DNA from: a virus
Lineage: Duplodnaviria > Heunggongvirae > Uroviricota > Caudoviricetes
Direction: 5' to 3' (one strand)
Virus record (IMG/VR): IMGVR_UViG_2778261229_000001
Coordinates: 1-46,686 of that record
DNA length: 46,686 bases
The notes beneath the pieces were generated by a model that was not told where the DNA came from, searched no databases, and saw nothing but the letters and a program-made list of their open reading frames with translations. Position 1 is the first letter of the stretch. The number at the start of each line of letters is the position of its first letter. The position numbers and the translations under genes were made by a program. Of the stretch, positions 15,094 through 16,164 are shown piece by piece.

Positions 15094-15124
15094 ATGGGGA
15101 GGGCTTAGCCCTCCCTCTTTTTAC
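15094..15124. terminator. Bidirectional rho-independent terminator between convergent adhesin and esterase genes
   Basis: GGGAGGGC-tta-GCCCTCCC stem-loop followed by TCTTTTT; A/T-rich on the other side. Confidence 0.75.
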
Positions 15125-16164
15125 AGGTTAGCGTTTGGGTTTTGTTGTTGGGGAGCTGTTTTTATAGGCGCTCCCAGGTTTTTAGTAAACCACTCAACGA
15201 CTCTGTTTATAATAATTGGCTGATACCATGTCTTATCGCCATGCTCGGCCCCTTCTACCAGCACGTACTCAGCGTTATCGCCGTTCTTCTTCAACATCCT
15301 GAATAGTTTGGCGCTTTGCTCAGGTGAAACCAGAGTGTCTTTGCTACCATGCATAATAAGAAATGGGGGTTTTACTCCTTTCATATGTCCGATTGGACTG
15401 GCGTTTAGCGCTTTTTCTTTTGACGCTGTGATGGGGGCTCCCGCAAAATTTCTGAATGCAGGGCCATTGATCATTAAGGCTTCGGTTACGGCAGGAGAGC
15501 GATGAACCTCCTGCACTGATTCAGGGAACCCCTCGCCAATATTCAACAAGTCAGAAATCCCATAAAGTGTGGCAACTGCCTGAACATCTGAGGATTGCTG
15601 AAGAAAGTCACCTTTATCAAAGGTTTTGTCACCATTTGTAGTTCTCATCATCTGGGCAAGCCATCCACCGGCAGAGTCACCCAGAACTCCGATTCTTTGA
15701 GGATCAATCCCATAATTGCTGGCATGCTCTCTCAGGTAACGTATTGCAGCTTTTCCATCCTCAACTGGTGCTGGAAATGTATCAGGAATTGTTCTGTATT
15801 CTACAGCGGCCACAACAAAACCAGCTTCTGCCAGAGCCATTCTCATTTCAATAAATTTGTCATGTTCAGAAGACATGAATCCGCCGCCGGGATAATAAAT
15901 AATGGCTGGTTTTAAATCATTTGTTCGCGGGACAAGAACTGACATGTGAAGCTGTCTGACAGAACGAGTTCCTTTTATCTGGGAATAAACAACATCACCA
16001 ATGAGATCGACCTGGTTTCTGGTCGGTGAAACACTAATGATATCTGCACCCGGGGTGTAACCAGGAAGATTAGTCTGGACAGGTGTTGCACAACTCCCGA
16101 CCGACATGGCCATTGACATACCATACAATAGTGTTGCAGATGATAATATCTTGTTAATTTTCAT
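15121..16164 (-). CDS. Secreted alpha/beta-hydrolase-fold esterase/lipase
   Basis: 347-aa; N-terminal signal peptide; HGG-type oxyanion motif (YYPGGGF) and GDSAGG nucleophile motif. Confidence 0.7.
   Translation of the reverse strand: MKINKILSSATLLYGMSMAMSVGSCATPVQTNLPGYTPGADIISVSPTRNQVDLIGDVVYSQIKGTRSVRQLHMSVLVPRTNDLKPAIIYYPGGGFMSSEHDKFIEMRMALAEAGFVVAAVEYRTIPDTFPAPVEDGKAAIRYLREHASNYGIDPQRIGVLGDSAGGWLAQMMRTTNGDKTFDKGDFLQQSSDVQAVATLYGISDLLNIGEGFPESVQEVHRSPAVTEALMINGPAFRNFAGAPITASKEKALNASPIGHMKGVKPPFLIMHGSKDTLVSPEQSAKLFRMLKKNGDNAEYVLVEGAEHGDKTWYQPIIINRVVEWFTKNLGAPIKTAPQQQNPNANL

Follow-up and report, generated by a model that had tools for sequence, protein, structure and literature searches.

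Why should a temperate phage of Escherichia coli carry a gene for an exported esterase, and on which esters would such an enzyme act? The question is raised by a gene at positions 15121 to 16164 of IMG/VR virus record IMGVR_UViG_2778261229_000001, a DNA of 46,686 nt (the whole of which is here called the window) that constitutes a complete lambdoid prophage with an integrase gene at its start. The product is an exact sequence match to WP_097730562.1, which bears the RefSeq name 'alpha/beta hydrolase [Escherichia coli]', and we refer to the gene as the esterase gene, the name given to it in one phage record. A preliminary description of the window, made from its letters alone, had seen in it a secreted GDSAGG hydrolase that converges with an adhesin gene of the same moron island and might act as a carbohydrate or lipid esterase on host or bacterial surface structures. 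Altogether, our results support a model whereby the esterase is a lysogenic-conversion (moron) cargo gene of lambdoid E. coli prophages, and we favour, with moderate confidence, a hydroxycinnamate esterase lipoprotein as its product. In what we consider the best reading of the sequence, the enzyme would cleave hydroxycinnamate esters (feruloyl or chlorogenate) rather than act as a lipase of the Aes or hormone-sensitive lipase (HSL) type or as a surface-glycan esterase. The gene is intact, widely carried and uncharacterised, and we infer both its substrate and the benefit that it would bring to the host.

The 347-codon reading frame, which begins with ATG on the minus strand, had been called correctly: its Pfam and PHROG matches and the ratio of nonsynonymous to synonymous substitution rates (dN/dS) between its alleles argue against chance. 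The best Pfam match is BD-FAE (PF20434; bifunctional feruloyl/acetyl-xylan esterase), which scores 149.6 bits against a cut-off of 26.8 (E=1.2e-43) and places residues 80-290 on profile positions 7-214 of 215, and weaker matches are made to Abhydrolase_3 (PF07859; 81.2 bits against 25) and Peptidase_S9 (68 bits). The phage-protein library returned PHROG 3341 'esterase' (E=4.6e-128). Among solved structures, the best match by sequence is 6nkf (Lip_vut4 from a goat rumen metagenome; E=2e-36), followed by the gut carbohydrate esterases 6mly, 6xyc and 6tkx; the same PDB relatives were recovered in a fold search with an AF2 model built from 37 homologues (predicted local distance difference test score 79.6, predicted template modelling score 0.82), and a search of viral folds in BFVD returned distant alpha/beta hydrolases only.

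The same number of homologues, 62-79% identical to the query, was aligned for all calls of invariance. The preliminary description had proposed to look for loss of the catalytic triad in such an alignment; Ser164, Asp276 and His308 are invariant in it, and the triad is Ser-Asp-His in all 43 full-length copies in IMG/VR. The GDSAGG motif, rightly taken as the mark of an alpha/beta hydrolase, occupies residues 162-167, and its counterparts in the alignments to 6nkf, 6mly and 6xyc are their nucleophile elbows (GDSSGG/GFSSGG). What had been termed an HGG-like motif is indeed a glycine-rich oxyanion loop; it reads YPGGGF, with Pro92 in the place of His. In BD-FAE itself the triad is Ser128/Asp237/His269, with 109 residues from Ser to Asp and 32 from Asp to His (PMC8165983), compared with 112 and 32 in the phage enzyme. 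As judged from these alignments, the catalytic residues are intact and conserved.

The clue to the substrate comes from the relatives. Three of the four nearest non-phage relatives (P0002, 79% identity; P0004, 75%; P0005, 75%) directly follow, 12-34 nt downstream, a 168-aa phenolic acid decarboxylase (PAD) gene (PF05870, E=2.3e-84), and for P0004 and P0005 a divergent LysR gene is seen beside the pair. An annotated LysR-PAD-esterase arrangement is also carried by the E. coli IncFII plasmid pSCU-105-1 (WP_169063298/WP_169063299), the esterase of which is 75% identical to that of the phage. This operon (L074:3485-5633) lies on a conjugative plasmid of a human commensal E. coli from the rectal swab of a healthy person and has a LysR gene broken by an IS3 element. 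The substrates of phenolic acid decarboxylases are ferulic, p-coumaric and caffeic acids, and a co-transcribed esterase is therefore expected to free those acids from esters. LysR-PAD-esterase operons are probably the source lineage of the phage gene.

Moreover, the phage product shares 63-66% identity with a Dickeya aquatica protein of 343 aa (SLM61953.1) that bears the deposited name 'Ferulate esterase', and 47% with a paralogue of that protein deposited under the same name (SLM61950.1, 328 aa, beside a LysR gene). Two feruloyl esterases, FaeD and FaeT, are described for Dickeya and listed under CE10 (PMC10319131; PMC9007343), and FaeD is a substrate of the Out type II secretion system (PMC9007343). 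Taken together, membership of the BD-FAE family, the identity to Dickeya proteins named 'Ferulate esterase' and the linkage to PAD lead us to propose a hydroxycinnamate-ester esterase; feruloyl or acetyl-xylan activity as in BD-FAE is predicted indirectly, by analogy, from the PAD-operon context of relatives and the name of the Dickeya protein. A further homologue (72.6% identity), annotated as hypothetical, is present in Escherichia phage PHB10 (MK524177.1, 21963-22859), an unrelated 57-kb E. coli phage; the match covers residues 32-330 only, and the signal peptide is possibly absent.

The product had been described as secreted by way of a signal peptide. An export signal is present, and its conserved lipobox makes a lipid-anchored envelope protein more likely than a free exoenzyme. 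The N-terminus consists of MKINK, a moderately hydrophobic stretch and the lipobox V22-G23-S24-C25, which conforms to the PROSITE PS51257-type rule, with [LVI][ASTVIG][GAS]C closing an n-h signal peptide. Cys25 is the sole Cys of the protein and is kept in all 44 IMG/VR loci as well as in 10 of 10 listed E. coli cluster members having an N-terminus. Relatives of at least 75% identity (the 75-80% clade) have S[AT]GC at this site, whereas those of at most 72% identity (from Dickeya, Pectobacterium, Pantoea, Kluyvera, Klebsiella and Rhizobium) have ordinary AxA-type signals whose ends fall at the corresponding site, a few residues ahead of a conserved LPGY, suggesting that the enteric/phage clade switched to a signal-peptidase-II signal. 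By the sorting rule for E. coli lipoproteins, Ala at position +2 directs a protein to the outer membrane; the +2 residue here is Ala, and outer-membrane targeting is therefore predicted. From these features we infer lipidation and outer-membrane localisation.

In our model, the esterase would be exported by Sec, acquire a lipid on Cys25 and be cleaved by signal peptidase II in the course of Lgt/LspA/Lnt maturation, and be sorted by Lol to the outer membrane because of its +2 Ala. The mature domain would be a Ser164/Asp276/His308 alpha/beta hydrolase of the BD-FAE family, the substrates of which would most likely be feruloyl and p-coumaroyl esters on plant oligosaccharides together with esters of the chlorogenic-acid type, and an acetyl-esterase side activity is possible. 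For an enzyme facing the periplasm, the substrates would be porin-permeant esters, for example chlorogenic acid or small feruloylated oligosaccharides; for a surface-exposed one, polymeric fibre might be a substrate. Type II secretion of lipoproteins is a known precedent. A lysogen would gain a diet-related hydrolytic trait, directed at plant phenolic esters, in the gut.

Several observations weigh against this model. The phage copy stands without a PAD gene context: a tblastn search upstream of the esterase and throughout the window found no PAD remnant, and DNA homology to the PAD-linked copies begins only about 10 nt before the ATG. Distant homologues (in Klebsiella, Dickeya zeae and a soil contig) lie in unrelated contexts with no consistent neighbour. 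In addition, a metagenome contig assigned to E. coli by cluster names (L069:399-7113) has an 80%-identical esterase allele with a canonical STGC lipobox near a SPATE serine-protease autotransporter (Peptidase_S6) and a PerC-family gene (perC), which is another mobile, virulence-type context. The PAD link is thus confined to the closest clade. Enzymes of the BD-FAE type are bifunctional, and the specificity of alpha/beta hydrolases is notoriously hard to read from sequence. A literature search found no enzymology for this protein or for any relative above 66% identity, and searches for the accessions WP_000700202, WP_000700204 and YP_009909478 and for a prophage feruloyl esterase of E. coli found no paper on the esterase. 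As for the lipid anchor, the h-region of the signal is only moderately hydrophobic, and Tyr replaces Cys25 in alleles P0001, P0005 and P0163, which represent at least two lineages (TGY to TAY); lipidation is therefore not indispensable. To one such lineage belongs the representative of a 90%-identity cluster with 1,454 E. coli sequences, and the strains concerned may have a plain secreted or an uncleaved form. Finally, neither a promoter scan nor a relaxed scan found a convincing sigma-70 promoter on the minus strand of the 264 nt upstream of the gene.

Three other explanations were weighed. The strongest of them, which we nevertheless regard as unlikely, is that the product is mainly a carbohydrate O-acetyl esterase, of the acetyl-xylan or pectin type or directed at O-acetylated mucin sialic acids, O-antigen or peptidoglycan, and, in functional partnership with the adhesin, modifies surface or host glycans. 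Phage-borne glycan esterases have a precedent in the prophage-encoded NanS-p sialate O-acetylesterases of enterohaemorrhagic E. coli. The PDB relatives 6xyc, 6tkx, 6mly and 6a6o are acetyl or carbohydrate esterases, the adhesin adjoins the gene in about 420 genomes, BD-FAE members free acetate from xylan as well as ferulate (PMC8165983), and the NCBIfam models of the pectin acetylesterase PaeX and the acetyl-xylan esterase AxeA1 are weakly matched. However, these two scores stay below their cut-offs (43.9 bits against 550 and 41.8 against 700), the product has an alpha/beta-hydrolase fold, has no SASA/SGNH Pfam domain and bears no likeness to NanS-type esterases, the gene assorts independently of the adhesin, and the nearest relatives are linked to PAD and not to glycan-utilisation or surface-polysaccharide genes. 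We found nothing in support of the earlier suggestion that host or bacterial surface structures are the target; homology and gene neighbourhood point instead to plant hydroxycinnamate or acetyl esters.

Rather improbable, in our view, is a generic short/medium-chain carboxylesterase or an HSL (family IV) lipase that acts on lipids or xenobiotic esters and has no specific link to plant phenolics. It would account for the deposition of the top PDB match, 6nkf, as a 'lipase', for the Abhydrolase_3 match above its cut-off and for the GDSAG at residues 162-166, a motif typical of the GDSAG subfamily of family IV, and NCBIfam models for LipQ, LipP1 and chloramphenicol hydrolase are matched too. These matches fall far under the respective cut-offs, though (82.8 bits against 700, 78.5 against 350 and 60 against 500), as do those to the other HSL subfamilies (GTSAG, 55 against 380; GESAG, 47.7 against 430; GCSAG, 32.3 against 410) and to Aes (NF007547; 57.6 against 389, from residues 81-176 only). 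An invariant Pro92 moreover stands in place of the His of the family IV HGGG motif, the BD-FAE score is almost twice that of Abhydrolase_3, and the nearest relatives have their PAD-operon context. The profile search that had been proposed for HSL/Aes and acetyl-xylan esterase families thus ended with all of these NCBIfam models below their cut-offs and with BD-FAE as the best Pfam family; of the two options named at the time, a carbohydrate esterase was the right neighbourhood and a lipid esterase of the Aes/HSL kind was not.

Least credible is a functionless passenger, a decaying piece of a captured operon that hitch-hikes unexpressed in the slot between ren and ninB, since the want of a convincing promoter, the loss of the PAD and LysR partners on capture and the occurrence of some broken copies are set against a dN/dS of 0.12-0.27 between alleles, full length with intact triad and lipobox in 43 of the 44 IMG/VR copies, about 668 genomes with a copy covering at least 80% of the query, and retention in at least three phage backgrounds and in viable isolated phages. 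The dN/dS and the intact loci indicate that the gene is maintained by selection. Among the disrupted copies (H13, which is NZ_CP124429.1, and H46-H50; P0122; L043 and L047) are an IS1 insertion, junction truncations and a premature stop, and an N-terminally truncated form of 251 aa starting MSSEHDK is found on 36 contigs.

Two further roles were considered and rejected. PADLOC models gave no family at E<=0.01 for a part in anti-phage defence, and a virion-associated depolymerase or esterase is at odds with an early-region gene that has a lipoprotein signal and lies on the strand opposite to the phage operons.

That the hydroxycinnamate esterase we propose is phage cargo is supported by its position and its boundaries. 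The gene occupies the variable region between P/ren (P being a replication gene) and ylcH-ninB(ybcN), antisense to the early-right (pR) operon, as is expected for a lysogenic-conversion gene, and the GC content is 0.36-0.47 over about 10800-16600, whereas the flanks have about 0.51-0.56. In phages and genomes that lack the adhesin, the alignment starts at window position 15117, and in phages that lack the esterase (phage 82, PhiR30_1 and others) it starts at 16429; the esterase module is therefore 15117-16428. It is a discrete insertion with defined boundaries and deviant GC (0.40-0.47), and the same slot holds other cargo elsewhere. A prophage beside icd in E. coli A37 is collinear with window positions 8672-28521 at 99.1% identity.

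The esterase is present in about 735 of 5,426 complete E. coli genomes. Its junction with the adhesin is intact in about 420 of these, including ST131 strains such as JJ1886, and other E. coli genomes have only one of the two, either the esterase (with homology from 15117 on) or the adhesin. Eight phage records likewise have the esterase without the adhesin and homology from 15117. Isolated phages that carry it are 4A7, 4C10, D2, 1W, 3W, Perceval and PhiR47_2; in the lambdoid phages 4A7 and Perceval it lies beside ybcK or emrE, the order in 4A7 being ren-emrE-ybcK-[esterase]-ybcN. Of the 44 IMG/VR loci, 25 have the adhesin as downstream neighbour, 13 have ybcK and six have something else; one of these six (L038) has emrE and an outer-membrane beta-barrel protein as neighbours; upstream, 447 nt and ninB are linked to the esterase in all 44. 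A scan of genome contigs for the species range yielded nine loci. Esterase and adhesin thus share a hot spot and are separate, independently assorting cargo: the moron character and the common site that had been ascribed to them hold, and the single island does not, as the modules meet at 15117 and the downstream neighbour varies.

In related phages, the slot from ren to ninB contains mostly envelope-related cargo (L038:7103-8610; L073:3984-4993; L002:5541-7655), for example emrE with an OmpX/Opacity-like beta-barrel protein, an acyltransferase with an outer-membrane lipoprotein (an acyltransferase and a lipoprotein are the cargo of PhiR30_1), or emrE with the ybcK recombinase. Exactly at the right edge of the module, on the plus strand at 16430-16458, lies a sigma-70-like site, TTGATT-17-CATAAT. 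Its counterpart in phage 82 (X92588) is an annotated putative -35/-10 upstream of orf33/ninB, so that the slot for cargo ends at a conserved promoter-like element. Further on, immediately ahead of ninB(ybcN) and inside a small ylcH/orf33-like open reading frame (about 16514-16615), the plus strand has at 16551-16574 a hairpin and T-run resembling a terminator, which may be a tR2-like terminator of the nin region. The prophage has a second envelope-lipoprotein moron, an iss/bor homologue (increased serum survival lipoprotein; window 20282-20623, minus strand) downstream of the lysis genes, as annotated from the collinear A37 prophage.

On the other side of the esterase, the adhesin gene converges with it as had been described, and the 36 nt between the two stop codons contain a single hairpin with a minimum free energy of -18.1 kcal/mol on the plus strand (z = -2.0) and -17.0 kcal/mol on the minus strand (z = -2.7). 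On the plus strand it is directly followed by CTTTTTA, the T-run of which overlaps the esterase stop codon, whereas on the minus strand its tail is the weaker CATTCAATTTTGTT. By these sequence features it qualifies as a good intrinsic terminator of the adhesin gene and, for the esterase, as a weaker one. Phage 4A7 has another hairpin (AGCCCGCA....TGCGGGCT) next to the same CTTTTTACAG tail, which indicates that the hairpin of the window belongs to the adhesin module, its left-hand neighbour; consistently, it lies left of junction 15117, and the sequences place the recombination junction within the terminator T-tract. The sharing of a bidirectional terminator by the two genes is thus physically true and evolutionarily incidental. 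For the esterase, candidate termination is provided by a hairpin that the neighbouring module supplies, with a weak U-tail on the esterase strand.

The adhesin scores below the cut-offs of all named NCBIfam adhesin models, and a literature search on the inverse autotransporter of ST131 prophages found nothing relevant. Within its gene, at 12485-13198 (plus strand), a unit of about 357 bp, which encodes one Ig-like domain of 119 aa ('SDVSTADSSFTLDGDSSPTISADS...KQ'), stands in two near-identical tandem copies. Off-diagonal BLAST matches show the units to be about 97% identical, and the duplication is likely a site of repeat-number variation between strains.

Expression in lysogens would start from the non-coding region upstream of the esterase, which accompanies the gene throughout. 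The coordinates of this region and of the other features are collected in Table 1.

Table 1. Positions in the window of the esterase gene, its functional sites and the adjoining elements.
Feature	Positions	Strand	Basis or details
Esterase CDS	15121..16164	-	ATG start, 347 aa; open reading frame listing, Pfam BD-FAE and PHROG 3341
Esterase module	15117..16428	-	1.3 kb: CDS, 4 nt of 3' tail and 264 nt upstream
Lipoprotein-type signal peptide, MKINKILSSATLLYGMSMAMSVGS followed by C (codons 1-25)	16090..16164	-	Lipobox pattern; Cys25 codon TGT 16090-16092; +2 is Ala
Oxyanion-hole loop P92-G-G-G-F96 (preceded by Y91)	15877..15891	-	P92, G93, G94, G95 and F96 invariant in the 37-sequence alignment
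Nucleophile elbow G162-D-S164-A-G-G167	15664..15681	-	Ser164 codon 15673-15675; G162, D163, S164, G166 and G167 invariant
Catalytic Asp276 codon	15337..15339	-	Invariant; aligned to Asp of HGD.D in 6nkf, 6mly and 6xyc
Catalytic His308 codon	15241..15243	-	Invariant; aligned to the catalytic His of PDB homologues
Upstream non-coding region, presumed promoter and leader	16165..16428	-	97.5-100% conserved; always linked to the gene in 44 loci
Weak extended -10 candidate TGaAATAAT	16289-16297	-	Best promoter candidate in 16165-16428
AAGG	10 nt before esterase ATG	-	Within the upstream region 16165..16428
G+C-rich hairpin	15096..15116		Single hairpin in the 36-nt gap; 9-bp stem, 7 G-C pairs, 3-nt loop
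Inverse-autotransporter (intimin/invasin-like) adhesin, 1302 aa	11176..15084	+	Pfam IAT_beta E=5e-101, Big_1, Invasin_D3

What would a phage-borne hydroxycinnamate esterase mean for E. coli in the gut? According to the passages in which two articles cite Couteau et al. 2001 (PMC10340781, PMC4335975), a cinnamoyl esterase that is bound to the cell and acts on chlorogenic acid and ethyl ferulate occurs in some human colonic E. coli isolates and not in others, three E. coli strains being among the six hydrolysing isolates. It is tempting to speculate, although we hold it doubtful, that the prophage esterase is that strain-variable activity. If this were true, a temperate phage and not the core genome would decide whether an E. 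coli strain releases caffeic and ferulic acid from dietary polyphenol esters, about 13% (about one in seven) of sequenced E. coli, pandemic ST131 included, would have a phage-conferred trait of diet metabolism, and the lipid anchor would put the enzyme within reach of porin-permeant esters such as chlorogenic acid (about 354 Da).

If our assignment is right, an activity on dietary polyphenols and plant fibre would join the short list of phage morons that are metabolic rather than concerned with virulence or exclusion, and strain variation in chlorogenic-acid hydrolysis among gut E. coli would have a simple genetic account; the name 'alpha/beta hydrolase' could then be replaced by 'BD-FAE-family lipoprotein esterase (putative feruloyl esterase)'. 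The locus is also a clean case of modular cargo exchange, in which the recombination junction falls precisely on a terminator T-tract. There is nothing unfamiliar about the enzyme family, about lipoprotein export or about morons as such, and what we describe is an enzyme of an ordinary kind whose carrier is unusual.

Among known systems, BD-FAE of Dysgonomonas mossii (6tkx/6xyc; Hameleers et al. 2021, PMC8165983) belongs to the same Pfam family, is exported and has a nearly identically spaced Ser-Asp-His triad, and the alpha/beta-hydrolase folds correspond (Foldseek E about 1e-18, TM about 0.62-0.75). Identity is only about 26%, however, and BD-FAE is an enzyme of a Bacteroidota polysaccharide utilisation locus (PUL) with a GFSSGG elbow, whereas the esterase is enterobacterial, phage-borne and lipobox-bearing, has GDSAGG and is without PUL or xylanase neighbours. 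The ferulate esterases of D. aquatica share with the phage esterase their length, motifs and N-terminal export signal; they are chromosomal proteins of a plant pathogen with ordinary signal-peptidase-I signals, unlike the lipobox-bearing product of a phage in a gut commensal or pathogen. Closer still are the LysR-PAD-esterase operons of enteric bacteria, at 75-79% identity and with the same lipobox-type signal; these operons are known from annotation alone, and the phage copy differs from them in lacking the decarboxylase and the regulator.

Lip_vut4 (6nkf) is the best match by both sequence and fold, with about 29-35% identity over residues 48-330; it was crystallised as a construct without signal peptide and deposited as a lipase, and we know of no substrate data for it. 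E. coli Aes and the HSL family IV have GDSAG and the Abhydrolase_3 match in common with the esterase, which has YPGGG instead of HGGG and is exported, whereas Aes is cytoplasmic. Finally, we note that other lambdoid morons (emrE/ybcK of DLP12-like phages, bor/iss and lom) are likewise discrete modules with a hairpin at their end and mostly envelope products. Set beside the envelope proteins that usually fill this slot, an enzyme from a carbohydrate/phenolic esterase family is out of the ordinary.

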